A stretch of 64,000 nucleotides of DNA from an uncultured Candidatus Saccharibacteria bacterium (GCA_964357615.1 CAYHMC010000007.1:4896-68895); one strand, 5' to 3'; shown: positions 1 to 35,560, counted from the first letter of the stretch. Numbers and translations are program-made. Notes: generated by a model not told the origin, from the sequence alone.

Positions 1-1823
1 GTCATAGATATTCCAACAAATAATCCTGATGTTATTGCTCCAATAAGTAGTCCGCCTAATGCAAATTTTCCAAAAAACAAAGCGACAACCAAAACTACAA
101 CGATGGGCAATAGGGTTGGCACAATCATTTCCCGAAGAGCAGCCTTTGTTACTATATCAACTGCCTTTTTATAATCCGGTTTAGCAGTGCGATCCATTAT
201 TCCAGGAATTTCTCTAAATTGACGCCTTACTTCTTCTACTACTGCACCAGCTGCTCGCCCCACTGACTTCATGGCCATACCACCAAACAAATATGGAAGT
301 GCCGCTCCCAAAAACAAACCTACCAACACCATTGGATCTCCGAGGTTAAAGCTAATCAATCCTTCTCCAGATTCTTTTGACAAAACTTCAACATAATCAG
401 AGAAAAGTATGAGAGCAGCTAGACCAGCAGATGCAATTGCGTAACCCTTTGTAACTGCTTTTGTAGTATTTCCAACAGCATCAAGCGCATCAGTAATTTT
501 ACGAATCTCATCAGGCGAACCAGACATCTCTGCAATTCCACCAGCGTTGTCAGTAATTGGCCCGAAGGAATCTATGGCTAAAATTATTCCAGCAACAGAA
601 AGCATAGCAACTGCAGCCAACGCGACGCCAGGCAAAAGGGCAATTGAATAACTTCCTAAAATTGCTGCTGCGATGATAACGATAGGCAATGCCGTACCTT
701 CCATACCAACAGACAAACCAACAATTATATTTGTTCCGTGCCCAGATTTAGATGCCTCCGCGATTGATTGAACTGGGCGGTATTTTTTTGATGTATAGTA
801 ATCGGTGGTTAAAACCATTAATATTGTTACCCCGAGTCCAATCAAGGTTGAAATAAATGCATCTGAAGAACTTACACCAGCTGGCAAAAGCTCTTCGAAA
901 TATTTAGTTGCAAAATAAAATAATACAGCAGATATTCCGATAGTTACGCTTAGCCCACGATAAAGAGCTCCCATTATCGAACCTGATTTTGGCAATGATA
1001 CAAACATACTTCCCACAAGAGATGCTAATATTCCTAAACCTCCTAATATCAATGGCAACACTCCTGCCTCAAGACTAGTGCTTAAAATAATTATAATAAT
1101 CGCGGCGGCGAGCGTTACAGCATAAGTTTCAAAAAGATCAGCGGCCATTCCATTAACATCGCCAACATTATCACCAACATTGTCAGCTATAACTGCTGGA
1201 TTCCTAGGGTCGTCTTCTGGTATTCCGGCTTCAACTTTTCCAACTAAATCAGCTCCCACATCTGCAGCCTTAGTAAATATTCCACCTCCTAATCTAGCGA
1301 ATACAGAAATTAAACTCGCACCAAAACCCAAGCCAATTAATCCAGAACGAAGCATTTCTGGATTACCTATTTGTAATCCCCAATAATAAAAAGCTGATAC
1401 AACGAGTAACCCCAAGGCAACAACTAAAAATCCAGTAACGGCTCCCGCTTTAAATGCAAGAGAAAGCGCACTACCAAGTCCATCTTTGGCAGCCGCGGTA
1501 GTCTTAGAGTTAGACCTAACGGCTATCATCATTCCGATGCAACCAGATGCGGCTGAGGCTATGGCTCCAACAAGAAATCCAACAACAGTAACCATTCCGA
1601 GCGAACCCAAAAACAACCAAAGTAAAATCGCCAAAATAACGGCTATTATAGCAACGGTGCTATATTGTCGTTTCAAAAAAGCAGAGGCACCATCTTGAAT
1701 TGCTTTTGAAATTTCTATTTGTTCCTCATTTCCTGATGGCTTATTTTTTAACCAGTTAATAATATATAAACTATATCCAATTGCTAGGGCGATTGGTAAA
1801 AATATTAATAATTGTATTTGCAT
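1..1823 (-). CDS. hppA: Membrane-bound proton/sodium-translocating pyrophosphatase, partial (N-terminus at 1823, C-terminus beyond window start)
   Basis: Minus-strand frame is open from 1823 (ATG) to the window edge. My translation starts [17 protein letters not shown] and contains [11 protein letters not shown], the H+-PPase signature, plus many transmembrane helices. The ORF track lists only small plus-strand ORFs here, which I treat as spurious. Confidence 0.88.
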
Positions 1824-1884
1824 AAAATTTAATTATTGATTTATAATAAACAACTCAAAAAATCTTTATTGTTTCTAAATAATT

Positions 1885-3147
1885 TTATTTATCTTCTTTA
1901 ACTTCAGGTGTGTCTATTTTAACTTCTGGTGTATCAGTTTTTATAGCTTCATCTTCAGTGGAAGCTACAGCCACTCCTTCAGCTTGCACTTCTTCTGGTC
2001 GAGATTGCGACCTAACATCTATTTTCCATCCTGTAAGTTTGGCGGCGAGTCTTACATTTTGACCACCACGACCAATCGCGAGAGAAAGTTGGTCTTCTGG
2101 GACAAAAACTCTAATTTCTCTCCTTGGAGAAATTTCGGTATAAGTTACTTTTGCTGGTGATAAAGAATTTGCAACAAATTTTTCTGGTTCTTCTTGCCAT
2201 TCAATAATATCTATTTTTTCATTTCCAAGTTCATTATTCACTGCCATTACTCTTGTTCCTCTCTGACCCACACAAGAACCAACTGGGTCAATATTTTCTT
2301 CAGTTGAGCTAACCGCTATTTTTGTTCGGCTTCCTGGTTCACGAGCTATGGCTTTAATTTGCACAATTCCATCCGAAATTTCTGGAACTTCCATTTCAAA
2401 TAATTTTCCAACAAATTGAGGATGCGCTCTAGATAAAATTATTGATGGTAGACGAGGTTCATTTTGCACAGCAACAACATAAAAACGAAGTCTTTCTCCA
2501 GACTTATAATGTTCTCCTGGGATAGTTTCGTTACCAAACATAACTCCGATTGCTCTTCCTAAATCAATATAAACATTTCCGCGCTCAAATCTTTGTACAA
2601 CTCCCGATGCAATTTCACCTTCTTTGTTTTCAAATTCAGAAAGAATTGCGTTCTTTTCTGCCTCGCGCAATTGTTGCAAAATAACCTGCTTCGCTGTTTG
2701 AGCAGCAATACGACCAAAATCATCATGAACCTCCAAGTCAAAAGTAAGCTCATCTCCAAGCTTAATATCTTTACCCATAGTTTCCTTTGCTTCGTCCATC
2801 ATAATGTGACGATCTGGATTATATCTTGGGAGTAAATCTTCTTCTGAATCTTCTATGATTGCTCTCTTGCTTGGAGTAGACTCTCTAGATTTATCATCAA
2901 TATCCTCTGGTTCTTCTTCTACGATACGAACAGTGCTTAAATCTACAACGGTTTTTACCTGCCAAAACTTAAGCTCTCCAGTCTCTGTGTTGAATTTTGC
3001 TTTAATAATTTCTCCACGCTTTCGATATTCTTTCTTATATGCAGCCGCAAAAGACGCCTCAATTGCACTAAGGATTACATCTGGCTCAAGTCCCTTTTCC
3101 GAAGCAATTTGAGAAATTGCGCGCGAAATATCTTTTAAGTTAAACAT
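1885..3147 (-). CDS. nusA: Transcription termination/antitermination factor NusA
   Basis: 420 aa. N-terminal MFNLKDISRAISQIASEKGLEPDVILSAIEASFAAAYKK matches the NusA N-domain. S1-like and KH-like central regions are present (GRGGQNVRLAAKLTGWKIDV). Confidence 0.9.
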   Translation of the reverse strand: MFNLKDISRAISQIASEKGLEPDVILSAIEASFAAAYKKEYRKRGEIIKAKFNTETGELKFWQVKTVVDLSTVRIVEEEPEDIDDKSRESTPSKRAIIEDSEEDLLPRYNPDRHIMMDEAKETMGKDIKLGDELTFDLEVHDDFGRIAAQTAKQVILQQLREAEKNAILSEFENKEGEIASGVVQRFERGNVYIDLGRAIGVMFGNETIPGEHYKSGERLRFYVVAVQNEPRLPSIILSRAHPQFVGKLFEMEVPEISDGIVQIKAIAREPGSRTKIAVSSTEENIDPVGSCVGQRGTRVMAVNNELGNEKIDIIEWQEEPEKFVANSLSPAKVTYTEISPRREIRVFVPEDQLSLAIGRGGQNVRLAAKLTGWKIDVRSQSRPEEVQAEGVAVASTEDEAIKTDTPEVKIDTPEVKEDK

Positions 3148-3352
3148 TTTTTATTTTAATTAATATTATATAAAAGCCCGCGCATCGGCGGACTTTCAAT
3201 CATCTTGTTAGATTCCACAATTTTACTCGCAATACAAAGACATCTAACAAAGTCAATATATTAACAATAACATAAGCAAATCTTAAGTCAAATCAGTTCC
3301 CAAATAAGAAAATTTATATTGCTACTAAGTTCTCTTGTCTTTTTTATTTAAT

Positions 3353-5431
3353 TTAGTGCCCCTCAATAATTGTCCCCACTTGAACAGTAACTTGTTTGAT
3401 TCTAACTACATCAGTACCAGCTTGGCTATTTTTGCATGAAAGGGTATAGGTTGTTGAATCTTCTGGATAAACATCATAAGTACCAGTGCATGTTCCCGCG
3501 CAGGGAGCGTCCGTAGAAATACCATGATCAATTGTATAATAATTAGAATTATCACATCTCCAAGTTAATTGAGATATCTGTTCAGACTTAACAAGGCTTG
3601 GATTAGCTGAAAAAGAAGCTATTGGTATATTAATTACACGAACATATTCTGAATCTCCGATATTAGTAACACCATCAGGGGTACACTGGATTATATATCT
3701 TAATAACCTAGTTAGTGGGCCACCAGTTGCAATGGTTGGAGTATTGAAAGTACGACTTCCGCTTACATTACCTGGGACGGCATTGGTATTAAGAATTGAA
3801 AAATTATTCCCATCTGTATCGCTGTCCCACCAATTAGTTCTATCACTATCTTCTGGTGGTTCTGGCAATGCTCTTTGTGCCTGACAACTAATCAAAGCGC
3901 TACCAACCCAATCAATAGTAATTGGATCTCCTTCATCTTTAATTAGAGGGTTACCGACTGGATTATCAGCATTATCAATTTCTAAATCAATTAGAGGTGT
4001 TGGGGTTGGGACGATTGGGGTTGGAGTGGGGACTACTGGGGTTGGAGTTGGCGTGGAAGGTAGCGCACCGCCTGAAGTTGTAAAGTACAAATGGCTATTT
4101 GTTCTTGCATAACGTGGGCTTCCATCACCTTCGTCCGTCGTTGATTTTAAATGTAATTTCCATCTATATGTTCTGTTTGGCTCCAAGTAAATAGTTCGTT
4201 GACTTGCACCAGAAGGAATAGACCAATCATTTTGCTTATTGGGTATACTTTTCTCCGTAGTTGCTCCATGCTGAAAATCAACAACTAAATCTTCACAATC
4301 ATTGGCATAGGTGCTTCTATCACCACACCTAGTAGCACCATCCATTCTTTCTGTATCAATTAATTCGATTCTATAATTTTCTTGTGTGCCACCTCCATCA
4401 GTATCAGCAAATGACCATTTTATAGTAACCGGCATTAGACCACCCACAAGTGGATCTGTGAGATTCGCATTATTCAATGGTTGCTGTATGCTCAGGGTTG
4501 GCTGATCTAAAGTAGCCGGCGGTGGTGTACCATCCATCATTTCATACTGTACTTCATTCGACTTAACTCCATTTACAACAACATAAGCTTTATAAAAGCC
4601 ATTTAGCGTACCGGCAGGAAAACCACGGACATTGGCCATATCATCTATATCTGGAAATGGTCCAGTAGTATCATTGCCAGAACCATCAGTAAAATTGCCA
4701 TAAGATCCATGGTCAAAGTGATTTCCCGACGGTGTAAGTGTGTGAAAACTAATTTCTAAATTTGGGGGTGCGTTTATTGTTTTTACCCATAAAGTTTGCT
4801 GAACTCCAACTGTATACTTTAGTTGTCCACTCGGAGAACTTATATACGCACTGGCTGGCGGTGGCGTTCTATCGTTAGAAACTGCCATAGTAAGTGTTGC
4901 CCTCAATACAGTGTATTTTACATTATTAGATTGCTTTCCATCTATTACAACATAAGCAGTATAAACACCCGCTGGCCAATTTGCGTCAATGCCATTGGAT
5001 GATCCATTAATATTTGGAAATGGGCCAGTAACATCAGCGCCAGCACCATTAGTTGTTTGACCATATGTTCCATGATTAAAATGGGAACCTCCCGGTGTGA
5101 TTGTATGAAACTCAACGCCCTTATTTGCGGCTGCGCCTACTGTAGTTAGCCAAATTGTATTTAAGGCTCCGGCAGTGACTTTAACTTGACCACCGGGAGA
5201 GGATACATATGAACTGGCTGCTGGAGCGGTTGCGTTATTGGACCTTGCAATAGTAAGAACTGGATCACCGGGTGCAGCAGCCGTTTTATTTAATGGAAAA
5301 ATTACCAAAATTAATAATCCAAGTGCTGTAGTAGCAATAATAGGTAAAAACGAGAAGTGAATTTTATTTATAAAATTTTTTTTCATATCATTTCCAATAA
5401 ATAATTGTTTTGATTTCAGGGGTAAAATCAC
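3353..5431 (-). CDS. Large secreted repeat-containing surface protein, paralog A. Likely true start is the ATG at 5386 (MKKNFINK...); the track start is a GTG.
   Basis: N-terminal signal/TM segment, then two tandem ~110-aa repeats (APAASSYVSSPGGQ... and PPPASAYISSPSGQ...). An FN3-like region (RTYRWKLHLKS) follows, then a PTPTP linker and a ~230-aa C-terminal domain. That domain is nucleotide-identical to the C-terminus of the 5911..8127 protein. Confidence 0.6.
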   Translation of the reverse strand: MILPLKSKQLFIGNDMKKNFINKIHFSFLPIIATTALGLLILVIFPLNKTAAAPGDPVLTIARSNNATAPAASSYVSSPGGQVKVTAGALNTIWLTTVGAAANKGVEFHTITPGGSHFNHGTYGQTTNGAGADVTGPFPNINGSSNGIDANWPAGVYTAYVVIDGKQSNNVKYTVLRATLTMAVSNDRTPPPASAYISSPSGQLKYTVGVQQTLWVKTINAPPNLEISFHTLTPSGNHFDHGSYGNFTDGSGNDTTGPFPDIDDMANVRGFPAGTLNGFYKAYVVVNGVKSNEVQYEMMDGTPPPATLDQPTLSIQQPLNNANLTDPLVGGLMPVTIKWSFADTDGGGTQENYRIELIDTERMDGATRCGDRSTYANDCEDLVVDFQHGATTEKSIPNKQNDWSIPSGASQRTIYLEPNRTYRWKLHLKSTTDEGDGSPRYARTNSHLYFTTSGGALPSTPTPTPVVPTPTPIVPTPTPLIDLEIDNADNPVGNPLIKDEGDPITIDWVGSALISCQAQRALPEPPEDSDRTNWWDSDTDGNNFSILNTNAVPGNVSGSRTFNTPTIATGGPLTRLLRYIIQCTPDGVTNIGDSEYVRVINIPIASFSANPSLVKSEQISQLTWRCDNSNYYTIDHGISTDAPCAGTCTGTYDVYPEDSTTYTLSCKNSQAGTDVVRIKQVTVQVGTIIEGH
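3359..4048. repeat. Approx. 690 bp direct repeat, copy 1, identical to 5917-6590. Encodes the shared C-terminal domain of the two large surface proteins.
   Basis: Direct comparison of the two stretches. They are identical from ...cctcaataattgtccccacttgaacagtaacttg... through ...ggggttgggacgattggggttggagtgggga. The boundary is estimated by eye. Confidence 0.8.
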
Positions 5432-5855
5432 TTAAAGAGCTTTTCTGTGAATATAATTCCAAAACAACTCCTTCGCCAATTTCTGAAATATTCCCTATCT
5501 CTAATTTATTATAATTTGGAGATTGTTCCTGATCTTTTCCTATCAATCTATAAACTTTCAAATCATCTTTAGCTAGTATTTTAAAGTTATTGTAATATCC
5601 ATCACTATCTTCGATTGTCAGTTTTATCAATCCATCTTTAGATTCCCATGATTCCAACTGACCTCTTGTCAAAAAAAATCCAAATTCTTGAGGGGGTTTG
5701 CTTAGAACAACTCCATCATTAAAACCCATATTAATTCCCGGCACACCTTTTTTAACTGCAAATAAAACTAGAGTTCCAACAACAACAATTATAAAAAGAA
5801 TGATTAGCCAAAGGTAAAAGTGGCTCGGCTTAGTAGCTCCAGAATTATTATTCAT
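5388..5855 (-). CDS. Small N-terminally membrane-anchored protein, paralog A of the 8131..8583 protein
   Basis: 155 aa. N-terminal MNNNSGATKPSHFYLWLIILFIIVVVGTLVLFAV is a TM segment and the C-terminus ends TIIYWK. It sits immediately upstream of large surface-protein gene A, with stop and start 1 nt apart. It is about 40 percent identical to the 8131..8583 product. Confidence 0.5.
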   Translation of the reverse strand: MNNNSGATKPSHFYLWLIILFIIVVVGTLVLFAVKKGVPGINMGFNDGVVLSKPPQEFGFFLTRGQLESWESKDGLIKLTIEDSDGYYNNFKILAKDDLKVYRLIGKDQEQSPNYNKLEIGNISEIGEGVVLELYSQKSSLSDFTPEIKTIIYWK

Positions 5856-5910
5856 ATTTTTAAATTATACTATATAGATATATTATAAAGTAGCTAAACT
5901 ATAAGTCAAT

Positions 5911-8127
5911 TTATTGTCCCTCAATAATTGTCCCCACTTGAACAGTAACTTGTTTGATTCTAACTACATCAGTACCAGCTTGGCTATTTTTGCATGAAAG
6001 GGTATAGGTTGTTGAATCTTCTGGATAAACATCATAAGTACCAGTGCATGTTCCCGCGCAGGGAGCGTCCGTAGAAATACCATGATCAATTGTATAATAA
6101 TTAGAATTATCACATCTCCAAGTTAATTGAGATATCTGTTCAGACTTAACAAGGCTTGGATTAGCTGAAAAAGAAGCTATTGGTATATTAATTACACGAA
6201 CATATTCTGAATCTCCGATATTAGTAACACCATCAGGGGTACACTGGATTATATATCTTAATAACCTAGTTAGTGGGCCACCAGTTGCAATGGTTGGAGT
6301 ATTGAAAGTACGACTTCCGCTTACATTACCTGGGACGGCATTGGTATTAAGAATTGAAAAATTATTCCCATCTGTATCGCTGTCCCACCAATTAGTTCTA
6401 TCACTATCTTCTGGTGGTTCTGGCAATGCTCTTTGTGCCTGACAACTAATCAAAGCGCTACCAACCCAATCAATAGTAATTGGATCTCCTTCATCTTTAA
6501 TTAGAGGGTTACCGACTGGATTATCAGCATTATCAATTTCTAAATCAATTAGAGGTGTTGGGGTTGGGACGATTGGGGTTGGAGTGGGGATGAGAGGCGA
6601 ACTTCCTGTGCTGAAAATTGCGCTAGTAGACCACCTGGTTCTATTTCCATTCGACGACCTCGCTTGAACACGCCATCTATAATTTTTATTTCTTTCAAGT
6701 GAAACTGTGCGAGAAGTTACCCCGCTACTTACATTTTCATTATTATAATTATCTAAACCACTAGTAGCGGTTGCGGGAAACCCATTTGTTCTAAAATCTG
6801 ATACCTTTTCCATACAATCCACATCATAATTCGTAGCTGAATTATCGCGACATAAATCAGCGCTAGGCAAATTAGAATCTAACTGATCTTGGTCTTGAAT
6901 TTGAATGCGGTATCTATTTTGAGAACCAGACCCGCCGAATGCAAAATTTGGTGGGTCGCTAAAAGTCCAATCTAGAGTCACTCTCATCCGACCATAAGCA
7001 TCCAAAGGCCCAGAAACTGGATCCGGTGGACCAACTATATTTACAATTGGGGGAGGTGGAAGTGTTGGAAGTGGTGCGAAGGGTGACGGTGATGCGCCAG
7101 CGCCACTAAGTGAAAATCGCCATCTTATTGTAAGAGCTTGATTAGCAATAATAGGTAATGTTACTAAATTGCTACTAGTATACGGTCCCGCTGTACAAAC
7201 TGGACCAGAGATTGGTCCATAACAATATTTATAACCATCTAATGTGTGACTACTGGGTATAGCCGAACTCGGTATTGATACCGTTACATTGGTTCCGTTA
7301 GCAATTCCAGCTCTCTCGTAAAAATATCCATTTCCTGAATCTGTAGGATATGAAACTGGAGAACCAGCGCCAACTGCTATATTGACTGATGTTTCAACTC
7401 CATCAAAAGTAATTGCTTCCATTGTCCATCCTATTACCGAACCAGTTCCTGGAGCTATAGTTGGTGTTGGAGATATTGGAGTTGGAGTAGAAGCGGGAAG
7501 TGGCGCATCAACACAAACATGGGCAGCTCTTCTAATTTCCCCGGCTCCATCACCAGAAAAACCAACAGACGATAAAACTGCTCTTAGGGCAATGCATTCA
7601 ACATAAGTCTCTGCGTCTTCATCTGGATCGACACCGCAACTTCCGTTGCATGTCATATTATTAATACTCGTTGCACTATTTAAGGGATTGAAACATTTTG
7701 CTGTAGCGAGATTAACACCACTGCCATCTGTCTTGAATCCAATACCTTTTAGTAACCAACCTAAAGGACAAACTGCCCAGTCTTCCATGTTGTCTGGTGG
7801 AGTTGAGTCATTATAACTGATATTGCAATCTGTGAAACTAGAACCACCACAGAACTGAATGCTAGTCTGAGTGCTTGGCAATCTATAACAACTTGCTCCT
7901 ATTCTCGTTACGGTATTGCCATCACCGGCAATGCCAACAGCTCTTAAGTATTCTCCTGAGGCACAACTAACCCAGCGCTCTGAAACCGATGAACTCTCAA
8001 AACAATCATCTGATCTGGTGCCCCAACAATGCACAGCTCCAGAAGAAGTAAAACTAGCTAGCGCAACATTAAAAACTAATAATATTAAAATTGGGGAAAC
8101 TAAAAATAAATATTTTTTGTAATTCAT
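5911..8127 (-). CDS. Large secreted repeat-containing surface protein, paralog B
   Basis: 738 aa with a signal peptide. Three Cys-bounded repeats (C..GEYLRAVGIAGDGNTVTRIGASC, C.LGWLLKGIGFKTDGSGVNLATAKC, C.ALRAVLSSVGFSGDGAGEIRRAAHVC). An FN3-like region (NYRWRVQARSS) precedes a PTPTP linker and the C-terminal ~230 aa, which is identical to paralog A. Confidence 0.6.
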   Translation of the reverse strand: MNYKKYLFLVSPILILLVFNVALASFTSSGAVHCWGTRSDDCFESSSVSERWVSCASGEYLRAVGIAGDGNTVTRIGASCYRLPSTQTSIQFCGGSSFTDCNISYNDSTPPDNMEDWAVCPLGWLLKGIGFKTDGSGVNLATAKCFNPLNSATSINNMTCNGSCGVDPDEDAETYVECIALRAVLSSVGFSGDGAGEIRRAAHVCVDAPLPASTPTPISPTPTIAPGTGSVIGWTMEAITFDGVETSVNIAVGAGSPVSYPTDSGNGYFYERAGIANGTNVTVSIPSSAIPSSHTLDGYKYCYGPISGPVCTAGPYTSSNLVTLPIIANQALTIRWRFSLSGAGASPSPFAPLPTLPPPPIVNIVGPPDPVSGPLDAYGRMRVTLDWTFSDPPNFAFGGSGSQNRYRIQIQDQDQLDSNLPSADLCRDNSATNYDVDCMEKVSDFRTNGFPATATSGLDNYNNENVSSGVTSRTVSLERNKNYRWRVQARSSNGNRTRWSTSAIFSTGSSPLIPTPTPIVPTPTPLIDLEIDNADNPVGNPLIKDEGDPITIDWVGSALISCQAQRALPEPPEDSDRTNWWDSDTDGNNFSILNTNAVPGNVSGSRTFNTPTIATGGPLTRLLRYIIQCTPDGVTNIGDSEYVRVINIPIASFSANPSLVKSEQISQLTWRCDNSNYYTIDHGISTDAPCAGTCTGTYDVYPEDSTTYTLSCKNSQAGTDVVRIKQVTVQVGTIIEGQ
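5917..6590. repeat. Approx. 690 bp direct repeat, copy 2, identical to 3359-4048
   Basis: See copy 1. Confidence 0.8.
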
Positions 8128-8130
8128 AAT

Positions 8131-8583
8131 TTAATCCCAATAAATAATTGTTGTGACTCTCGCTTCTAAGTTTTCATATAAATTATCTAGGTACAATTCA
8201 ATATACATTGCCTTTTTAATTTCACTTATTGATCCTACTTCAAATTTTCGATTTCCATCTACTCGCTCTTCATCATTACTTATATCTTTAAAATATTTTG
8301 TCTCATCGGATATATTTACAAAATATTTTTTAACTTTATTTTCATCAGATTCATCTTGAATTCCAACTGCCACGCGACCATATTTAGATTCTAAGGAATC
8401 TATTTGTCCCTTATCAATTAAAATTCCATATACAGAATCTTTATTTTGATTTCCGTTATTAATGTTAGGAACACCTTTTAAAACTGCTAGATAAACCAAA
8501 GTTCCAATAAAGACAACCAAAGAAAGAACTAAAATCCAAAGGTGGAAGTGACTCGACTTACCTGCTCCAGAGTTATTGTGCAT
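8131..8583 (-). CDS. Small N-terminally membrane-anchored protein, paralog B
   Basis: 150 aa. MHNNSGAGKSSHFHLWILVLSLVVFIGTLVYLAV is a TM segment and the C-terminus ends TTIIYWD. The stop lies 3 nt from the start of the downstream large surface-protein gene B. Confidence 0.5.
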   Translation of the reverse strand: MHNNSGAGKSSHFHLWILVLSLVVFIGTLVYLAVLKGVPNINNGNQNKDSVYGILIDKGQIDSLESKYGRVAVGIQDESDENKVKKYFVNISDETKYFKDISNDEERVDGNRKFEVGSISEIKKAMYIELYLDNLYENLEARVTTIIYWD

Positions 8584-9373
8584 AATATTATATTTTATAA
8601 AATATTTAATTTATTTATAAAATACTTTGTTACTTAAAAGTATAACACATTGGGGAATTATTCTATACTTTTTATTGTGAATATCTTTGTTAGAAAAAAC
8701 ATTAAATGATTGGGGCTGGGAATTCTATGAATAAAATATTAAATATAAATATCGCGCTTATGGCATACAAAAAAACTAATGTGCCTGTGGATAACTTGTT
8801 GATTTTGTATTGTATATCGATAAACATTGGTTCTTTTACCCCATAATAAAAACCAAATAAGTATATAGTTTTGTCTCGGTTATGACTTTTTTAAGCAAAA
8901 CAATAGATAAGTGCTAAGCTAATGCGAGAACTAGAGAACAAGCTTAATGGGAATTAAATAGAACATTGAAATTAAAATAAATAAATTAAAATAAATATTT
9001 TTAGTTAGTATCATTTGAAGTATAAAAATTATAAAAAATAAAGCCAAGTAAATTGTTTAAATTAAAAAAGTGTATTCAAAGCACATTCTCGCTCTAAAAA
9101 GCAAAATTTTAACCGAGATGCCCAGATTAAATATCGCAATTAAATTAAAGCTTAACTATTGAATTAATACGCCCGACAAATGTCTTAAACAAATAATTAT
9201 CGGAACAAAATATATTCAAAAGTAATAAACAAGTTCTTAAGGATTTTGAATTTTACCAAAAAAATAAATTGGGAATTGGGACTTTGCCTACTAAATAAAT
9301 ATCTGACTCAATTAGCTATGCATAATAAAATTCAAAAAAAATATATAATTTTCAATTTTGAAAATTAACATTT

Positions 9374-10413
9374 TGTTTATCAATAAACAATTTAGAAAAA
9401 ATATTCTATATAAAAATCTCGTAAATCTCCATAAAGTGTTTACCGATAAACATTTCTTTTTAAAAAATACTTAACAACGAACAACAACGCCGAAGCGTAG
9501 GCGCAAAAAATTATTAAAAACATCTTAATATTTTTGTAGATCAAACTAATTTAATATCCTAAATTTTAATCGAAGAACATTTTATTCAACTTAATAAAAG
9601 GTTTAACGATAAACAAAAAAGATTGGGGAGTCGACTTTGCAATATAAAAATATTCATCAACAAATGTTTGGCGATAAACAATTTTAGAAATATGAACAAA
9701 TAACTTTTTTGTGATTGACTGCCAATAACAAATTATAAAAATAGAACTTAAAAAATCATTTAAGCGATTGTTTAGAGTGATTAAGAAATTTATTTTTAAT
9801 CATGCAAATCTTAAAATAATAACTGCAATATTTTTTAATGAATGTTTATCGATAAACAATCAATTCTATTTCGTAAAATGTTTACCGATAAACATTTTAT
9901 TTTATTTAGCAGAATGTTTAACGACAAACAATTTTATTTTTTGAGAAAAATGTTTATCGTTAAACAAAATATTGACTGTTAAATTGAGAGGTTTAAATTT
10001 TTATATAAATTGTTTACTAATAAATATTTTATATAAGTGGAAATTAAATATTGATTAAATGATTATTGTTCTATAAAAAATATTTTTAATTACTGCTCTC
10101 CAGTTATATTAAAATAATTAGGCAATTAAAATAATTAGGCAATCAGGCAATTGCCTAATTTTACTATCGGCAACTAGTAATTTGTCGAAAATGTTTAGCG
10201 ATAAACATTTTTAAAATTCTATATCTAATATTAATTTCCAAAAACTTAATAAAATGTTTATCGACAAACATTTTATTTTATTTAGCAGAATGTTTAACGA
10301 CAAACAAATATATATTTAATTGAAAATAAAAAAAATTAATGTGAATGTTTATCGGTAAACATTTTTAATAATTTTGAATGAATTATTTATTTACGAGTGT
10401 TTGACGATAAACA
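9374..10413. repeat. Array of about 13 copies of a 16-bp perfect or near-perfect palindrome, TGTTTAnCGAnAAACA, often extended to a 20-22 bp palindrome AAATGTTTA.CGA.AAACATTT. A further degenerate copy lies near 10764.
   Basis: Hand-located copies begin at roughly 9374, 9427, 9600, 9665, 9843 (perfect TGTTTATCGATAAACA), 9879, 9915, 9951, 10192, 10255, 10291, 10346 and 10398. Spacing is irregular (33-240 bp). All lie in a gene-free AT-rich region. Confidence 0.85.
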
Positions 10414-10927
10414 AATAGCTCAAAAAAACTAGTTCTATAAAACTAGTAAATATATCTCTCTGACTCAGCCACTCCTATTTTTTGATTTTGCATTAGTTTA
10501 TATTAGTAACTAATATCGCTGTCAAATAGCCACATAAATTAGAACACGAATTCCTAAAAGATTTTCAATCTTCATAACCCAAATAAAGCTTGATCGCTAA
10601 GCTAACTAAGTTACAGCAATGAACATATAGATGGGCATTGCTGTATAAACCAGCTGCACAAAATGGATTACGGAACCAATAAATCTTAAATTATGATTAG
10701 ATAAAAATATCACTATAAACTATCAATAATTGAGTATTGGATTCAATTTTATGCATAATAAAATGTAAACCGACAAACAAAATATTTTAAATAGCCCAGT
10801 TTTTACTTGCTGGTTCATCTGTTAAACATTTTATTTGTTTAACAAGACTTGCTTCTAGACTATAAAAAATAATTCCTCGATTATGGTGAGCAAACTCAAT
10901 AACAATAAAAATAGATCTATAGAATAG

Positions 10928-12886: not shown

Positions 12887-13234
12887 TTAACCAGCGCTAA
12901 TACCAAGAAAATCACGGACCAAGAAAGTAACCGAGGCGGCAAGGAGAGCTACGCCGATTGCTACTGCTGCATAAATGACTGCATTTGTAGCTTCAGAAAC
13001 TTTGCTAGCATCTCCACCAGAGGTAAGATATTTAAATGCTGCAATAAGCAAAAAGATTACTGCAACAATAAGAAATATGCTGAATAACCAACTTACCACA
13101 TTTTGCAAAAGACCTAATACATATTCAATATTAAAACCAGGAATTGGAGCTGGGGCAACGAGAGCTGCTCCGGCTATCATTGGTAGCAACAAACTAGCTA
13201 CTGCGATTACTCCAGAAATTTTTTGTAATTTCAT
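12887..13234 (-). CDS. VirB2/TrbC-like T4SS pilin paralog 1
   Basis: 115 aa. Long signal peptide MKLQKISGVIAVASLLLPMIAGAA, then two hydrophobic helices separated by a short polar loop (FKYLTSGGDASKVSEA). The small C-terminal tail ends ...GISAG. It is about 90 percent identical to the 14140..14487 product. Confidence 0.55.
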   Translation of the reverse strand: MKLQKISGVIAVASLLLPMIAGAALVAPAPIPGFNIEYVLGLLQNVVSWLFSIFLIVAVIFLLIAAFKYLTSGGDASKVSEATNAVIYAAVAIGVALLAASVTFLVRDFLGISAG

Positions 13235-13483: not shown

Positions 13484-13831
13484 TTACCCTGCAGATATGC
13501 CCAAGAAACTCTCCACCAAACTACGAACGCCACTAGCAAGTAGCGCTACACCAATTGCTACAACCGCAAATATTACTGACCTATTTGCTTCGGAAACCCT
13601 AGAGGCATCTCCACCAGAGGTAAGATATTTAAATGCTGATAAAAGAAGCATTACCACAGCAAAAATCATAAAAATAGCAAAGAGCCAGTTAACTGCTGTA
13701 TCTAAAATGCCCAAAAAAGTTCCAACATTCAAAGTAACACTTGGTGGTGGTGGTAAAGGAGCAGCACTTGCAATCATCGGCAAAAGCATGCTTCCTAAGA
13801 AAAATATTTTTGAAATTTTATTTAACTTCAT
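13484..13831 (-). CDS. VirB2/TrbC-like T4SS pilin paralog 2
   Basis: 115 aa with the same architecture. MKLNKISKIFFLGSMLLPMIASAA signal peptide, AFKYLTSGGDASRVSEANRSVIFAVVAIGVALLA, ends GISAG. Confidence 0.55.
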   Translation of the reverse strand: MKLNKISKIFFLGSMLLPMIASAAPLPPPPSVTLNVGTFLGILDTAVNWLFAIFMIFAVVMLLLSAFKYLTSGGDASRVSEANRSVIFAVVAIGVALLASGVRSLVESFLGISAG

Positions 13832-14139: not shown

Positions 14140-14487
14140 TTAACCAGCGCTAATACCAAGAAAATCACGAACCAAATATTGAACTGAAGCGGCAAGGAGA
14201 GCTACGCCAATTGCAACTGCTGCATATATAACAGATTTGCTTGCTTCTCCTACCTTTGCTGAATCTCCACCAGAGGTAAGATATTTAAATGCTGCAAGAA
14301 GCAAAAAGATTACTGCAACAATAAGAAATATGCTGAATAACCAGCTTACTACATTCTGCAAAAGACCTAATACATATTCAATATTAAAACCAGGAATTGG
14401 AGCTGGGGCAACAACTGCTGCTCCGGCTATCATTGGTAGCAACAAACTAGCTACTGCGACTACTCCAGAAATTTTTTGTAATTTCAT
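14140..14487 (-). CDS. VirB2/TrbC-like T4SS pilin paralog 3
   Basis: 115 aa, near-identical to paralog 1. Confidence 0.55.
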   Translation of the reverse strand: MKLQKISGVVAVASLLLPMIAGAAVVAPAPIPGFNIEYVLGLLQNVVSWLFSIFLIVAVIFLLLAAFKYLTSGGDSAKVGEASKSVIYAAVAIGVALLAASVQYLVRDFLGISAG

Positions 14488-15465: not shown

Positions 15466-15813
15466 CTAACTGCCAGTTATAAGTTCGCGAATAAGAGTAG
15501 TCGAACCTCTAGCAAGCAACACAAGAGCAAAACCAACTATCGAATAAATAACTGTTTTGGTGCCTTTCCTAAACTGCTCAGCATTACCACCGGATGTTAA
15601 CATTTGAAAAGCTCCAATTAAAACCATCAGCACTGTAATAGGAATGGATACGGTTACTAAAAAATCTATGACTCTATTAATTACATCACTTATGGTCCCA
15701 GAAAATGGGGAAGCGGTTATTATTGGCCCTTGTGCGCTTACTATACTTGCATCCAAAAAAACAATTACCACTAAATAATAAACCAGAAAAATCCCAAGCA
15801 TTTTTTTTAGCAT
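15466..15813 (-). CDS. VirB2/TrbC-like pilin paralog 6 (divergent)
   Basis: 115 aa. AFQMLTSGGNAEQFRKGTKTVIYSIVGFALVLLA. C-terminus ELITGS. Confidence 0.5.
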   Translation of the reverse strand: MLKKMLGIFLVYYLVVIVFLDASIVSAQGPIITASPFSGTISDVINRVIDFLVTVSIPITVLMVLIGAFQMLTSGGNAEQFRKGTKTVIYSIVGFALVLLARGSTTLIRELITGS

Positions 15814-15913: not shown

Positions 15914-16834
15914 CTAAAATCTTATATCCCAGTGATTCGTCTCTCTGGCGTAAATATGTCCGGTGTTAGTATCTCTATACAAGGTAGCACCATCACTTCT
16001 AATTCCAGTCCTAACAAATCCATTAGCACCATTCCCAGTATTTCCTGCAATAAAGTTATCCACACAACTTGATAGTCTAAAATCTAATTTATTTCCACTC
16101 TGATGAGAATTCGGTCCAGTCGCATGTCCACCAGAAACTTCCGTGCCTCCAGTTATAACAATAGGACATCCACTCCTACTCTGAAAACTAACTGCTCCAC
16201 TTTGCGCAGATGTCGACAAGCCATCCAAACAAGTTTGTGGGCAATCATTATTAACTGTAATTTTTCCTCCGCTTGCGCTTAGCAATTGGGCTCTTATTAA
16301 ATTGCTTGCAGCTACATCATTACCTGTTCTACTTGTTGGTTGGGGTGCCCTACTACTATTAGGCAAAACAACTCCACCAGGTCCATTTGATGCTGTTAAT
16401 GTTTCTTCGGGTGGACAATCAATTTGATTCCACGGCTTACCAGTTACATTGTTTACTACAAGTAAATAAAAAACTTGATTAATAATGAGCCAAGAAACGA
16501 GCATTAAAATAACTCCTACTATAGCCCCAGTAATGGCACTTCTGCCTTGTTGGATTTTAGAAGGCATAGCTCCACCCAGCATTATTTGTATAGCACCGTA
16601 AGTAATAACAAGAACTGCCAAGATGGCGCCCACCTCAATCATATAGTTTGTGACTGTTTTGATTGTGTTTAGTCCATCGCAGAGGGTGCAATACTTAGTT
16701 CCGGGAGGAAAACTCAATGTTCCATGACACTGGTCTGGATCTATAATAGAAAAAGCATTTGTTGTAAAAGGTAGGAAGATGAGAAAAAGAAGCGGGAGGA
16801 GGAGAATTTTATTTTTGAGAAATATATTTTGCAT
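15914..16834 (-). CDS. Fusion protein: pilin-like N-terminal module plus C-terminal putative peptidoglycan peptidase domain
   Basis: 306 aa. The N-terminal ~165 aa has a signal peptide and two hydrophobic helices with a GG-containing loop (IQIMLGGAMPSKIQQGRSA), as in the pilin paralogs. It is identical to the N-terminus of the 16930..17985 product. The C-terminal domain contains SHQSGNKLD, an HxxGxxxD spacing reminiscent of M15-type peptidases; this assignment is weak. Confidence 0.45.
   Translation of the reverse strand: MQNIFLKNKILLLPLLFLIFLPFTTNAFSIIDPDQCHGTLSFPPGTKYCTLCDGLNTIKTVTNYMIEVGAILAVLVITYGAIQIMLGGAMPSKIQQGRSAITGAIVGVILMLVSWLIINQVFYLLVVNNVTGKPWNQIDCPPEETLTASNGPGGVVLPNSSRAPQPTSRTGNDVAASNLIRAQLLSASGGKITVNNDCPQTCLDGLSTSAQSGAVSFQSRSGCPIVITGGTEVSGGHATGPNSHQSGNKLDFRLSSCVDNFIAGNTGNGANGFVRTGIRSDGATLYRDTNTGHIYARETNHWDIRF
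16345..16810. repeat. Approx. 470 bp direct repeat, copy 1, identical to about 17495-17960. Encodes the shared pilin-like N-terminal module.
   Basis: The sequences run identically through ...ttcttcgggtggacaatcaatttgattccacggcttaccagttacattgtttactacaag.... The encoded amino acids are identical from KILLLPLLFLIF to GGVVLP. Boundaries are estimated by eye. Confidence 0.75.
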
Positions 16835-16929: not shown

Positions 16930-17985
16930 CTAAAAACATTTTCCAAAATTGCAGGCTTTGCCTTTTATAAAACAAGCATTATATCTTCCTTCTCCTGGCC
17001 TTATTGGACATCCCCATTTTGGAATTGCTGGCCATCCATCTGACACCTTACAATCAACGCTTGAGCCACTTTGTCTTATGCCAGCATTATAAATTGCGTA
17101 AGTTAATTCTTCGACAGTAGCGGCGTTTCCGTAGCGAGATTTTAGCGATTTTGCTGAGGAATATGCATCTGCCAAAACTTTGGTTCCTTGCTGAATATTT
17201 GTATCAGGATTTAATGAACAAGCACCGATTGGTTGCATTAAACCACAGCTTAATCCATCTACAGATCCAGCATTAGGATTACATCTAGACTCCATAGCAA
17301 TGATTGCCTTGATTAGAGATTCTGGAACATTGTATATGTCAGAATATTTAGCTATAGATGTTTGCCACGGTGAAGTATCGCATGTCGGACAAGACCCAAT
17401 ACCAGCGCATATTTGGCCACCACCAGAAAGCTGAGCTTTTGCAGCATTAACATCAGCACACGAATCTCCTCCGCCAGGAGGGGGACTACCGCCAGGCAAA
17501 ACAACTCCACCAGGTCCATTTGATGCTGTTAATGTTTCTTCGGGTGGACAATCAATTTGATTCCACGGCTTACCAGTTACATTGTTTACTACAAGTAAAT
17601 AAAAAACTTGATTAATAATGAGCCAAGAAACGAGCATTAAAATAACTCCTACTATAGCCCCAGTAATGGCACTTCTGCCTTGTTGGATTTTAGAAGGCAT
17701 AGCTCCACCCAGCATTATTTGTATAGCACCGTAAGTAATAACAAGAACTGCCAAGATGGCGCCCACCTCAATCATATAGTTTGTGACTGTTTTGATTGTG
17801 TTTAGTCCATCGCAGAGGGTGCAATACTTAGTTCCGGGAGGAAAACTCAATGTTCCATGACACTGGTCTGGATCTATAATAGAAAAAGCATTTGTTGTAA
17901 AAGGTAGGAAGATGAGAAAAAGAAGCGGGAGGAGGAGAATTTTATTTTTGCCTTTCATATATAAAATAAGTTTAACACAAAGCAA
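16930..17985 (-). CDS. Fusion protein: pilin-like N-terminal module plus C-terminal lytic transglycosylase (SLT, VirB1-like) domain
   Basis: 351 aa. The N-terminal module is identical to that of the 15914..16834 protein. The C-terminus contains AIIAMESRCNPNAGSVDGLSCGLMQP, the SLT-domain catalytic Glu-Ser and GLMQ motif. Confidence 0.6.
   Translation of the reverse strand: MLCVKLILYMKGKNKILLLPLLFLIFLPFTTNAFSIIDPDQCHGTLSFPPGTKYCTLCDGLNTIKTVTNYMIEVGAILAVLVITYGAIQIMLGGAMPSKIQQGRSAITGAIVGVILMLVSWLIINQVFYLLVVNNVTGKPWNQIDCPPEETLTASNGPGGVVLPGGSPPPGGGDSCADVNAAKAQLSGGGQICAGIGSCPTCDTSPWQTSIAKYSDIYNVPESLIKAIIAMESRCNPNAGSVDGLSCGLMQPIGACSLNPDTNIQQGTKVLADAYSSAKSLKSRYGNAATVEELTYAIYNAGIRQSGSSVDCKVSDGWPAIPKWGCPIRPGEGRYNACFIKGKACNFGKCF
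17495..17960. repeat. Approx. 470 bp direct repeat, copy 2, identical to 16345-16810
   Basis: See copy 1. Confidence 0.75.
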
Positions 17986-29445: not shown

Positions 29446-29518
29446 TCTTATTTAAAAACTCTCGCCATAAAACACGATATAAATTTAAAAACTACTAATA
29501 AAAACCATTAAAAAAAAT

Positions 29519-29546
29519 TTTACATAATGTGTTATCGTGGTACAAT
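29519..29546 (+). promoter_or_regulatory. Sigma70-like promoter with extended -10: TTTACA, 16-nt spacer, TGgTACAAT
   Basis: Located 28 nt upstream of the ftsH ATG at 29574. Confidence 0.5.
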
Positions 29547-29573
29547 GTTTGTAATAACCTTAAAAATAAATCT

Positions 29574-31436
29574 ATGAAAACTCCACTTATTAAAAAGCCC
29601 TCTCTTTTAAAACAAGCTGGAATGGCTTTTGGTATTTTTATAATAACTTTATCAATATTTTCGATGATTATGGAACAAGGAAAAGTTCCAGAAAAAATAT
29701 CTCTTGGTGAGTTAGTGAAAAGAGTTGAACAAGGAAAAATAGTTAAAGTGGCAATTTTAGGAAATGAACTAAATGCATTTATTCCAGAAAACAAAAGCGA
29801 TATTCCAGATGCCACATCTAAAAAAGAGCCTGGGGTAAGCATTACGGAAGTTTTTCAAAATTATGGAGTTGATTTAAAAACAGCAAACATAGAATTAGTA
29901 GTTGAAGACGAATCTCAGCTTTCTTTTTGGATGGGAAACCTTGCGCTTACCATATTACCCTTCCTTCTTATAGCTGGATTTTTTTGGTGGATGACACGAC
30001 AAGCAAGAGGGGGAATTAACCAGGCTTTTACTTTTGGAAAATCCAGCGCAAAACTTTTTGCTTCATTTAAAGATAAAATTACTTTCAAAGATGTTGCTGG
30101 GTTAAAAGAAGCCAAACAAGAGCTTGAAGAAATAATAGATTTTCTTAAAAATCCGAAAAAGTTTTTAGACATTGGCGCAAAAATTCCACGAGGCGTTCTT
30201 CTTATGGGACCACCTGGAACTGGAAAAACTCTAGTAGCAAGGGCCGTTGCTGGCGAAGCTAATGTTCCTTTCTTTTATATGTCAGCTTCAGAGTTTGTAG
30301 AAATGTTTGTTGGAGTGGGCGCATCTCGCGTTAGAGACCTTTTTGATACTGCAAAAAAATCTTCGCCTTCAATTATATTTATAGATGAAATCGATGCCGT
30401 GGGACGAGAAAGAGGGGCGGGACTAGGAGGTGGACACGACGAAAGAGAGCAAACACTAAATCAAATACTCGTTGAAATGGATGGCTTTGAGAGAGATACT
30501 CGCGTAATAGTTATAGCGGCAACAAACAGGCCCGATGTGCTAGACTCTGCGCTTCTTAGACCAGGAAGATTCGACAGGCGAGTAGTATTAGACCTTCCTG
30601 ACATAAATGATAGAGAGGCAATTTTACACATTCATGCAAAAGGAAAAATTTTAGATCAAGATGTTGATTTGCGACGAGTGGCTGTGCGCACTCCTGGTTT
30701 TTCAGGTGCTGACCTTGCAAACCTAATGAATGAAGCGGCAATTTTTACAGCGCGTGAAAATAAAAAAACAATTGCACAAATATATATTTTAGATGCGATT
30801 GAAAAAGTTATTCTTGGACCAGAGAGGAAGGGACGAGCAATACTTCAAAAAGAAAAAGAGATTACTGCCTATCATGAAGCTGGGCATGCATTGGTTGCAG
30901 CCTCTCTAAAAGATGCTGACCCCGTACAAAAAGTTTCAATTATTAGTCGTGGACGAGCGGGTGGCTACACACTAAAACTTCCTCTTGAAGAAAGACGCCT
31001 AAAAACAAAAAATCAATTTATTGCAGATTTATCGGTGGCTCTTGGAGGTTATGTTTCCGAACAATCAACTTTCGGAGATATAACAACTGGTTCTTCAAGT
31101 GATTTGAAAGAGGCATCGGAACTCGCACGATTACTTGTTACTAGGTATGGCATGTCTAATCTTGGCCCGCTTACTTACGGCAAACACCATGAAACAATTT
31201 TTATTGGTCGTGAAATTAATGCAGAAAGAGATTTTTCTGAAAAAACAGCGCAAGATATTGATAGCGAGGTTTCTAACATAATGAAGTCAGCCTACGATTT
31301 AGCAAAAAAAGTAATTACAAAACACAAAACAGCGCTTAAGGCAATTGCGGACACTTTAATTGAACACGAAACTTTAGAGCATGAAGCTTTTTATGCGCTC
31401 CTCAAAAGATTCAACCTAAAACCAATGGCGGTATAA
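29574..31436 (+). CDS. ftsH: ATP-dependent zinc metalloprotease FtsH
   Basis: MKTPLIKK... start with two N-terminal TM segments. Walker [10 protein letters not shown], Walker [11 protein letters not shown], second region of homology, and the HEAGHALVA zinc motif. The track start at 29529 would add an implausible 15-aa extension overlapping the promoter. Confidence 0.95.
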
Positions 31437-31580: not shown

Positions 31581-31653
31581 GCGCCTGTAGCTTAGTGGCT
31601 AAAGCACCGAGCTTATACCTCGGGGATCGATGGTTCGAGTCCATCCAGGCGCA
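31581..31653 (+). tRNA. tRNA-Ile, anticodon TAT (UAU)
   Basis: 73-nt cloverleaf. Acceptor GCGCCTG/CAGGCGC, D-arm GCTT-AGTGGCTA-AAGC, anticodon stem CCGAG/CTCGG with loop CTTATAC, T-arm GATGG-TTCGAGT-CCATC. Discriminator A. A TATAAT box sits 10 nt upstream. Confidence 0.7.
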
Positions 31654-31686
31654 CACTTCGGCAAGCTTAGTGCGAGCCAAAGTTAT

Positions 31687-33446: not shown

Positions 33447-34349
33447 TTACGACCTTCTTCTGCCATGAAAAGTTTTATGAATCTCTTTTAGTTCTTTATT
33501 TGTAACATGAGTATATATTTGCGTTGTAGAAATATTTGCATGACCAAGTAGCGCCTGCACGGAACGAAGGTCGGCCCCATTCATTAATAAATCAGTGGCA
33601 AATGCATGTCGCATCATGTGTGGTGTTACATGGTCTTGTATTCCAGCTTTCCTCGCATAATGGTCTATCATTCTCTGAACAGACCTTGAGGATACCCTGC
33701 CAGTAGAAACTTCCTTCTTTTTTAGCGGATTGCCAGATGCAAAACTAACAAATAGTGCTTCCTCGGCATCAACTCGCTTAGCTAAATAATTTTTTACAGC
33801 AGTCACTGCTCGTGGAGAAAAAAAGACAACACGAATTTTTTCTCCCTTACCCCTGACGCTAATTTCGCCTCTTTCTAAATTTAGATATCTGTTTAGTGCA
33901 CACAATTCAGAAATACGAAGTCCGGTTGAAAAAAAAGTTTCGAGTATTGCTCTATCCCGTAATCCTCGCAATGTTTTGGTGTCAGGCGCATTCATTAATC
34001 TCTCTATATCACTACTTTCTGGAATTTCTATCTGACGCGAAGGAGTTCTGGGAAGCTCTATTTTATCTGGCGATAAAACTTCGAGATCTCTTTTTATTAA
34101 AAACTTCAAATAATTTCTGATTGATATAATATAATAGCTTTGCGTATTTTTCTTAATATTCCTGCGAGCTAAATTTAAACGAAATTCTCGCACAACACTT
34201 TCAGTAATATCACCCACATTTTTAATTTTTTGAACATCAAAAAAAACTTTTAAGTAACGCTCATAATTTTCGCGAGTTTTTATAGAGCGATTTTTTTCTA
34301 TTTCTAAATAATTTAAATACTCAATTAAATATTTTTGTACTTCGGTCAT
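33447..34349 (-). CDS. Site-specific tyrosine recombinase, XerC/XerD/integrase family
   Basis: 300 aa. An N-terminal SAM-like core-binding domain (YLNYLEIEKNRSIKTRENYERYLKVFF) precedes a C-terminal catalytic region: RGKGEKIRVV, HMMRHAFATDLLMNGADLRSVQALLGHANISTTQIYTHV. These supply the R, H-x-x-R and Y residues. Confidence 0.85.
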   Translation of the reverse strand: MTEVQKYLIEYLNYLEIEKNRSIKTRENYERYLKVFFDVQKIKNVGDITESVVREFRLNLARRNIKKNTQSYYIISIRNYLKFLIKRDLEVLSPDKIELPRTPSRQIEIPESSDIERLMNAPDTKTLRGLRDRAILETFFSTGLRISELCALNRYLNLERGEISVRGKGEKIRVVFFSPRAVTAVKNYLAKRVDAEEALFVSFASGNPLKKKEVSTGRVSSRSVQRMIDHYARKAGIQDHVTPHMMRHAFATDLLMNGADLRSVQALLGHANISTTQIYTHVTNKELKEIHKTFHGRRRS

Positions 34350-35517: not shown

Positions 35518-35560
35518 CTGAAAAATATAATTTCATACGAAAATACGAAATAAAAAAATA

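Follow-up and report, generated by a model that had tools for sequence, protein, structure and literature searches.

How do two neighboring genes that have diverged over most of their length come to end in the same DNA? The question is raised by a locus on a metagenome-assembled contig of an uncultured Candidatus Saccharibacteria bacterium (GCA_964357615.1, CAYHMC010000007.1:4896-68895). The analyzed stretch of 64,000 nucleotides, taken from a single contig of 70.7 kb, is referred to here as the window. Between positions 3,353 and 8,583 of the window, genes for small membrane proteins alternate with genes for large proteins of probable surface location, and the two large genes are nearly indistinguishable at their 3′ ends (Table 1). 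Two paralogous gene pairs stand in tandem here, in the chromosome of an uncultivated bacterium of the Patescibacteria, or Candidate Phyla Radiation (CPR), from Hainich groundwater. Judging by its sample names, the source is the Hainich Critical Zone Exploratory, from which CPR genomes have reportedly been described in a published study. We consider it likely that recent gene conversion between the tandem paralogs homogenized the shared end, and the two large proteins may display two different heads at the cell surface on a common immunoglobulin (Ig)-like piece.

An identical tail on otherwise diverged genes

The minus strand carries four open reading frames (ORFs), arranged head to tail, which form two modules, each made up of a small gene followed by a large one. 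This tandem arrangement had been claimed in an original prediction made from the sequence alone, and it is present in the sequence, with both modules on the minus strand. In a base-by-base comparison of the two large genes, the longest exact run joins 3360-4032 to 5918-6590, a length of 673 bp at an offset of 2558. Extended through the stop codon, the similarity covers 683 bp (3350-4032 versus 5908-6590) and includes two substitutions. The first, at 3356, makes the last codon CAC (His) in one copy and CAA (Gln) in the other, and the second, at 3359, falls in the penultimate codon, where both versions (GGG versus GGA) encode Gly. The base-for-base identity of the 3′ segment that had been predicted is therefore real, while its predicted length of about 690 bp gives way to 673 exact base pairs, or 683 with two differences. 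The range predicted for the first copy, 3359-4048, is 16 nt too long and disagrees with the 674 nt of its partner (5917-6590), and the copies, said to differ only in the final codon, also differ in the penultimate one.

The borders of the identical tract are sharp. Upstream, at 4032/4033, the tract ends inside a repeat that encodes the Pro/Thr (PT) linker of large gene 1; Tandem Repeats Finder places this repeat at 3999-4048, with a period of 21 and 2.4 copies. Within a few bases of this border, 100% identity drops to background, and the other border is the stop codon. The linker-coding repeats of large gene 2 belong to the same repeat family (D2) and are 77% and 64% identical to its reference copy; the more diverged of them, at 7457-7500, encodes the first PT linker of large protein 2. 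There are only two copies of the tail in the window, and a repeat scan of all 64 kb found a comparably long and nearly identical repeat in one other place only (457 bp, 16361-16817 and 17494-17950). A chance origin of the tail identity is excluded.

Outside the tail the modules are far less alike. BLASTP aligns the small proteins across their full length with 37% identity (E 9e-33), and global alignment gives 39%. The large proteins share a layout consisting of a signal peptide, an unrelated head, an Fn3-like domain, a Pro/Thr linker, and the identical tail of 224 aa. Divergence had been predicted over the N-terminal 450-500 aa; in fact only the first 300-345 aa are unrelated, and homology resumes at the Fn3-like domain, which is 36% identical at the amino acid level and 48% identical at the nucleotide level by global alignment. 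Nucleotide identity in the aligned parts outside the tail is 43-56%, compared with 100% over 673 bp within it.

To compare synonymous positions, protein-guided codon alignments were made, and counts were taken at residues shared by the two copies for which the genetic code offers a choice of codons. The same codon is used at 33 of 54 such residues in the small genes (61%), at 22 of 47 in the Fn3-like domains (47%), and at 24 of 69 in the heads (35%). In the tail the figure is 219 of 220, or about 100%. Selection at the protein level therefore cannot explain the identity, since synonymous sites have been homogenized as well. The codon counts uphold the prediction that recent gene conversion or recombination has homogenized the C-terminal part, and the combination of a tail whose similarity greatly exceeds that of the remaining gene parts, sharp borders, and homogenized synonymous sites fits concerted evolution. 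The tail DNA has a very recent common origin. The duplication that gave rise to the modules is old, with identities of only 36-39% between the small genes and between the Fn3-like domains.

Table 1. Features of the two gene pairs and of the DNA that they share (window coordinates).
Feature	Position	Strand	Description
Small gene, module 2	8131..8583	-	150 aa, P0003; ORF call and BLASTP to the module 1 small protein
Large gene, module 2	5911..8127	-	738 aa, P0001; ORF call
Small gene, module 1	5388..5855	-	155 aa, P0002; paralog of 8131-8583
Large gene, module 1	3353..5386	-	677 aa counted from ATG, P0004
Promoter-like site in the spacer ahead of small gene 1	5882..5909	-	Consensus match
Repeat copy A	3350..4032	-	End of PT linker, Ig-like domain 1 (3626-4000), Ig-like domain 2 (3356-3625), stop codon
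Repeat copy B	5908..6590	-	Ig-like domain 1 (6184-6558), Ig-like domain 2 (5914-6183), stop codon
Linker-coding low-complexity repeat, large gene 1	3996..4060	-	21-nt period, repeat family D2
Matching Pro/Thr-linker-coding repeat, large gene 2	6554..6597	-	Repeat family D2; tract border 6590/6591
Fn3-like domain, large protein 1	4031..4456	-	Residues about 311-452; BLASTP alignment to the large protein 2 domain (6589-7068)

Gene calls and predicted expression of the modules

The large gene of module 1 had been drawn as 3353..5431, with a GTG start at 5431 and a product of 692 aa. An ATG start at 5386, with a product of 677 aa, is most likely the correct one, because the public protein sets contain the 677-aa form and the 692-aa form is absent from them. 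With this start the small and large genes do not overlap; counted from the stop of the small gene, the start of the large gene is 1 nt away in module 1 and 3 nt away in module 2. Gaps this short make it probable that the two genes of each pair are co-translated, and the two proteins of a pair may work together. At 677 and 738 aa, the large proteins are also well short of the "giant" surface proteins that had been described.

The spacer separating large gene 2 from small gene 1 is 55 bp long and carries TTGACT-16-TATAAT on the minus strand, ahead of module 1. This site matches the consensus at 11 of 12 positions and is the top-scoring site within 3100-9100, in a scan that used consensus matching only and in which the total number of sites in the region was not above that of shuffled controls. 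That module 1 has a promoter-like site of its own argues for two independently expressed units. At the other end of the locus, 205 bp (3147-3352) separate the stop of large gene 1 from the nusA start, and in this gap, at about 3172-3196, an imperfect GC-rich hairpin precedes a T-run on the minus strand. The hairpin was seen by eye and missed by the terminator scan, and may terminate the module transcript before nusA.

Probable gene conversion and its alternatives

The course of events that we favor begins with an old duplication, which would have given two collinear gene pairs with a common architecture. The DNA of the Ig-Ig tail would then have been overwritten recently by non-reciprocal homologous recombination between the copies. 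The conversion tract would begin in the repetitive linker-coding DNA and end where the homology ends, at the stop codon, and the substitution in each of the last two codons is probably a leftover of an older divergence at the frayed edge of the tract. The homologous but old flanks point to the same architecture in both genes before homogenization. We infer the mechanism of conversion from three direct observations, namely the anatomy of the modules, the identity of the tail, and the codon evidence against protein-level selection.

The identity could have arisen in another way, if one gene acquired the Ig-Ig tail as a segmental copy from its neighbor, by an illegitimate or microhomology-mediated event at the PT-linker repeat, in exchange for an unrelated C-terminus. 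As this event would have it, low-complexity linker DNA is exactly where the upstream border falls, and such DNA recurs at three domain borders. Domain swapping does occur in this genome, as can be seen from a second pair of adjacent genes, 15914-16834 and 16930-17985, both on the minus strand. These share an exact identity of 457 bp (16361-16817 and 17494-17950), which encodes an N-terminal part of about 150 aa comprising a signal peptide and a T4SS_pilin-like membrane domain. The identity stops in a Pro/Gly/Ser-rich linker, after which the C-terminal domains are unrelated, one of them being an SLT lytic transglycosylase. The mosaic pattern is the same as at the main locus, but here the constant part is N-terminal. 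Segmental homogenization or domain swapping of neighboring envelope genes therefore recurs in this genome. However, the two modules are collinear and homologous on either side of the heads, in the small gene and in the Fn3-like domain up to the linker, so that a common ancestral tail is the simpler assumption. In addition, the identity ends no more than 10 nt from the stop codon in both copies, which is expected for conversion and would be a coincidence for an illegitimate copy. We regard acquisition of the tail as unlikely, although conversion and a recent segmental replacement of the tail leave the same sequence and cannot be told apart by it.

An artifact of assembly is less probable still. 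Differences between the copies might have been erased by path merging, or two strain variants of one locus might have been chained. The window is a metagenome contig, and the per-sample assemblies, with a coverage of 2-4x, break up within the repeat or close to it. Short contigs from independent per-sample assemblies of Hainich well H41 (0.1-um fraction) also encode the small proteins, and small protein 1 is identical on three independently assembled H41 contigs. Three contigs (L001, L002, and L003) start inside tail copy B and reach head 1 by way of the 55-bp spacer and small gene 1, while two others (L004 and L005) connect the upstream region, across small gene 2, with head 2. If there were one locus followed by nusA, no tail could end directly ahead of the spacer and module 1, and the three contigs that place a tail copy before module 1 therefore exclude a chaining of strain alleles from one locus. 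Since the repeat has two entries and two exits, the tandem path has a single alternative, namely a module 2 pair standing alone, together with a free circle made up of the spacer, module 1, and one copy of the repeat. In favor of an artifact, contig L002 differs from the window at three positions within its part of the repeat. These differences are mostly non-synonymous and lie near the end of a low-coverage contig, and similar clusters occur in unique sequence of L004. Even if a few differences were hidden, the similarity of the tail would remain far above that of its flanks.

The original prediction also raised the possibility of a cassette for phase or antigenic variation. The tail would then be a recombination handle for switching heads, or the modules would be turned on and off. 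Variable heads on the constant part of a probably surface-exposed protein do resemble variable adhesins, and module 1 could be deleted or duplicated by way of the direct repeats. The idea is nevertheless very improbable, because only two copies of the tail are found, both in the window and among 1.84 billion cluster representatives, and both belong to complete genes with signal peptides. No silent, promoterless donor cassettes were found in the 64-kb window or among the called proteins of the 1.84 billion representatives. Only two proteins carry the tail, and the next best matches are 32-42% identical over one domain only; there is therefore no pool of silent donors. There are no simple-sequence tracts in the promoters or 5′ coding regions, the linker-coding 21-mer being the sole intragenic tandem repeat. 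No inverted repeats flank the promoters, and the sole inverted repeat is a 74% AT-rich pair 5.8 kb apart. A recombinase gene adjacent to the modules was likewise not found, and the sole tyrosine recombinase of the window, at 33447-34349, is 25 kb away. A diversity-generating retroelement was considered separately and rejected, as the copies differ at 2 of 683 positions and no reverse transcriptase domain was found in the 34 window ORFs scanned.

That purifying selection alone keeps the tails identical, with no recombination, has practically no probability, since it has nothing in its favor beyond the identity itself and is refuted by the codon comparison and by the fall from full identity to background within a few bases.

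Several further points weigh against conversion as we describe it. The joins from head 2 into the repeat, from head 1 into the repeat, and from the repeat to the nusA side are seen in the window contig only. An assembler may merge near-identical copies, so that "exact" may overstate the similarity. The three differences in L002, a contig of about 2x coverage, all fall in copy B, and none falls in 761 bp of unique sequence. They lie at contig positions 55, 97, and 137 (window positions 6089, 6047, and 6007), and consist of Ile to Asn, Cys to Phe, and one synonymous change. We consider them probably errors or population variants, because two of the three are non-synonymous, one destroys a Cys, and L004 has a similar cluster in unique sequence. 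Neither the genome scan of nusA neighborhoods nor the search of Joint Genome Institute (JGI) metagenomes revealed a related strain or species that carries the locus, and only the same H41 population was recovered. The evidence for conversion comes from one population. With respect to function, the proposed surface display is without homology support: the small proteins and both heads are orphans, and no anchoring motif was found in the proteins. The locus is nevertheless a clean and probably real example, from a single metagenomic population, of gene conversion between paralogous genes.

Domains and relatives of the large proteins

Both large proteins begin with a signal-peptide-like N-terminus, as read from their sequences. 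In large protein 2 (738 aa), the signal peptide is followed by three Cys-rich repeats of approximately 50-70 aa, a PT linker, a beta-rich domain, the Fn3-like domain, a second PT linker, and the Ig-Ig tail. Large protein 1 (677 aa) has two copies of a beta-rich repeat of approximately 125 aa in place of these first domains, and then the Fn3-like domain, the PT linker, and the Ig-Ig tail. The head repeats of both proteins were read by eye, and self-BLAST listed no repeat pairs. A search with the Cys-rich head of large protein 2 found no homolog; its motif gives an impression of a VMO-I-type beta-prism lectin, a likeness that is not claimed here. The middle domain of large protein 2 has a sub-threshold Pfam match to Ig_Rha78A_N (25.4 bits, cut-off 27.4), and residues 449-508 match fn3 weakly (15.4 bits, cut-off 25, E 0.023). 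Pfam gave no match for the Fn3-like domain of large protein 1, and none for the tail in either large protein, even at E <= 1.

Structure prediction of the shared C-terminal domain, which had been proposed as a check, was carried out. A single-sequence AlphaFold model of the whole 738-aa protein gave no confident structure, with a predicted local distance difference test score (pLDDT) of 35.7. When the 215-aa tail was modeled with an alignment of the tail and 55 relative segments (alignment A2), the mean pLDDT rose to 82.4, with a predicted template modeling score (pTM) of 0.73, and the 13 strands form two beta-sandwiches. In this model, all-beta domains occupy residues 1-125 and 126-215, and the first contains one disordered insertion. 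Foldseek searches against the PDB returned ICAM-1 (E 4e-7), ICAM-5 (query-normalized TM-score 0.54), and the MG domains of alpha-2-macroglobulin, and a search of the BFVD viral models returned the Ig-like virion decoration proteins of phages. The modeled tail is a pair of generic Ig-like domains, each predicted to have the Ig-like beta-sandwich fold.

An exhaustive HMMER search with the 225-aa tail against the 1.84 billion cluster representatives retrieved the two window proteins and 851 others (853 representatives in total). Among the best 150 matches, nearly all align only to the last 80-90 residues, according to local domain parsing. This second Ig domain of the tail belongs to a repeat of about 80 aa that is very widespread among large secreted proteins from many phyla and can reach 42 copies in one protein; in alignment A2 its P, G, L, W, V, P, T, and Y positions hardly vary. 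For the first 120 residues of the tail, P0063 is the sole match among the best 150. Relatives with many copies of Ig domain 2 pass the threshold of the Pfam I-set family by their summed score, while the window tails do not. A search with the whole 738-aa protein found only the protein itself, and a scan of the JGI metagenomes with the 677-aa protein found no relatives. PDB sequence searches gave only noise, and searches of NCBIfam, PHROGs, and PADLOC gave nothing meaningful.

The large proteins terminate in ...VTVQVGTIIEGH/Q, with no hydrophobic segment at this end. Read directly, the sequences of both proteins contain no C-terminal hydrophobic segment, sortase motif, or lipobox, and the tail contains no transmembrane segment or recognized secretion signal. 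The last residues, VQVGTIIEGH/Q (3356-3385 and 5914-5943, in P0004 and P0001), form a motif, and a similar one recurs at the C-termini of a few otherwise unrelated secreted proteins that have a terminal Ig-like domain of this type. It appears in P0025 and P0063 and more loosely in P0069, the variants being ...VQVGTIREY, ...VQVGRVCEG..., and, loosely, ...YKIIEGQPQ. The motif could be the last strand of an Ig-like domain or a conserved C-terminal signal.

The small proteins have a short N-terminal region, one transmembrane helix, and an extracytoplasmic part of about 110 aa. No convincing family was found for them in Pfam, NCBIfam, PHROG, or PADLOC. A profile search retrieved only the two proteins themselves, and a scan of the JGI metagenomes with the same profile found no relatives. 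Their divergence (37% identity) parallels that of the Fn3-like domain and not that of the tail.

Genomic setting

The gene nusA lies at 1885-3147, adjacent to the modules, and the closest NusA proteins are 62-66% identical and come from metagenome-assembled genomes labeled Paceibacterota or Saccharibacteria. Upstream of the modules are an AT-rich, ORF-free stretch of 2.3 kb, a tRNA-Leu gene, a gene for an SPFH-domain protein, a run of T4SS_pilin-like genes, and gyrA. Given these housekeeping flanks and the relatives of NusA, the locus is therefore a chromosomal CPR locus. A scan of nusA neighborhoods in 185,579 species genomes found no synteny, and none of the four proteins was present in the neighborhoods that were fetched. 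At the start of the window, in the ORF-free segment 1-1830, a minus-strand reading looks by eye like a gene for a membrane pyrophosphatase.

Three other origins of the region were considered and rejected. A genomic island at the tRNA-Leu gene is not indicated, as the 3′ end of the tRNA is not repeated in 1-10890 and no integrase is adjacent. A replication origin in the AT-rich palindrome region described below is not supported either, since there is no turn of the GC skew at 9-10 kb and no dnaA or parB among the scanned ORFs. Finally, neither PHROG nor PADLOC gave support for an origin from a prophage or a defense system.

The ORF-free, AT-rich stretch directly upstream of module 2 (8584-10926, 21-27% GC) contains an array of palindromes. 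Within 8811-10413 there are 14 copies of the 16-bp palindrome TGTTTAYCGRTAAACA, with up to 2 mismatches, where 0.11 would be expected by chance. Part of the array has a spacing of 36 bp (9843, 9879, 9915, and 9951; also 10255 and 10291), and one more copy lies at 46260. The outer arms, TGTT...AACA, resemble the chromosomal parS consensus, TGTTNCACGTGAAACA. The array could be centromere-like or could bind a regulator.

Further into the window there are six ORFs of 115 codons on the minus strand (12887-13234, 13484-13831, 14140-14487, 15466-15813, 29495-29842, and 35253-35600). The first matches the Pfam family T4SS_pilin (PF18895), and three share DNA that is 62-88% identical (family D1). Several overlap longer ORFs on the opposite strand, and not all of them need be real genes. 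A tRNA-Ile gene at 31581-31654 has the anticodon TAT (UAU), which reads AUA directly; most bacteria read AUA by means of a modified CAU anticodon.

Comparison with known systems and possible function

The closest mechanistic analog of the present locus is found in Helicobacter pylori, in the gene pairs babA/babB, homA/homB, and sabA/sabB. The 5′ and middle parts of these paralogs diverge while their 3′ segments are near-identical within a strain, through RecA-dependent intragenomic gene conversion that gives rise to chimeric genes (PMC3960876). As in babA and babB, paralogous surface genes of one genome have homogenized 3′ ends. The H. pylori paralogs, however, occupy distant loci, encode outer membrane adhesins of a diderm with a beta-barrel fold, and also undergo phase variation at repeat tracts. 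The present genes are in tandem, belong to a CPR bacterium, and combine a secreted Ig-like tail with a small membrane protein partner.

Secreted proteins with tandem Ig repeats share Ig domain 2 with the present tail. These relatives mostly have many repeats together with other catalytic or binding domains, whereas the present proteins have one such repeat, the rarer enlarged Ig-like domain found otherwise only in P0063 among the best 150 matches, and orphan heads. Silent-cassette systems such as pilE/pilS of Neisseria, vlsE of Borrelia, and tprK of Treponema have one expression site and many promoterless partial donors, and it is the variable part that is converted. The present locus is similar to these in that gene conversion acts on genes for exposed proteins with constant and variable parts. 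It differs in having two complete genes of the expressed type, and in that the constant part is converted. Polymorphic toxin and immunity modules have a C-terminal variable toxin domain and a small immunity gene downstream. They resemble the present locus in having a large secreted protein with a constant and a swappable part and an adjoining small gene, but in the present modules it is the N-terminal part that varies, and the small gene precedes the large one and is homologous between the modules. No toxin or immunity family was found in the module proteins with Pfam, NCBIfam, PHROG, or PADLOC.

The export signal, the different heads, the Fn3-like spacer, the flexible PT linker, and the Ig-Ig tail suggest that the large proteins belong to the envelope or the cell surface, where one shared Ig-like stalk or attachment piece would carry two different binding heads. 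The original prediction had named a shared anchoring or secretion domain as its other possibility; for the modeled tail, a role as such a stalk or attachment piece is plausible, and the small membrane protein may be the partner or the anchor of the large protein. Members of the CPR are thought to live attached to host cells, and a role in adhesion, as expected for an episymbiotic CPR cell, is plausibly served by these proteins.

The two mosaic gene pairs of the window could also have a wider meaning. Linker-coding DNA (Pro/Thr or Pro/Gly/Ser) and identical constant domains might serve as recombination handles, through which neighboring envelope genes exchange, lose, or gain domains or modules of a head and its partner. 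We offer this only tentatively and think it rather doubtful. If it were true, both mosaic pairs would be instances of one route by which surfaces are diversified for host attachment, and the copy number of the modules would vary within the population. Apart from this proposal, module 1 should be open to deletion or amplification by RecA-type recombination between the direct repeats of 673 bp, which lie 2.6 kb apart, and the copy number in the population may vary as a consequence.

Gene conversion between paralogous genes for surface proteins is a textbook process, and the present locus would be a new example of it in otherwise uncharacterized genes. A locus known from a single assembly and without relatives opens no new question by itself. 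To our knowledge, hardly any attachment proteins of the CPR have been described. Co-located secreted proteins with different heads, one homogenized Ig-like tail, and small membrane partners are reasonable candidates for the surface or attachment machinery of these bacteria, and with recent conversion as the likely origin of the shared tail, the locus would be a case of homologous recombination actively shaping surface genes in reduced CPR genomes.

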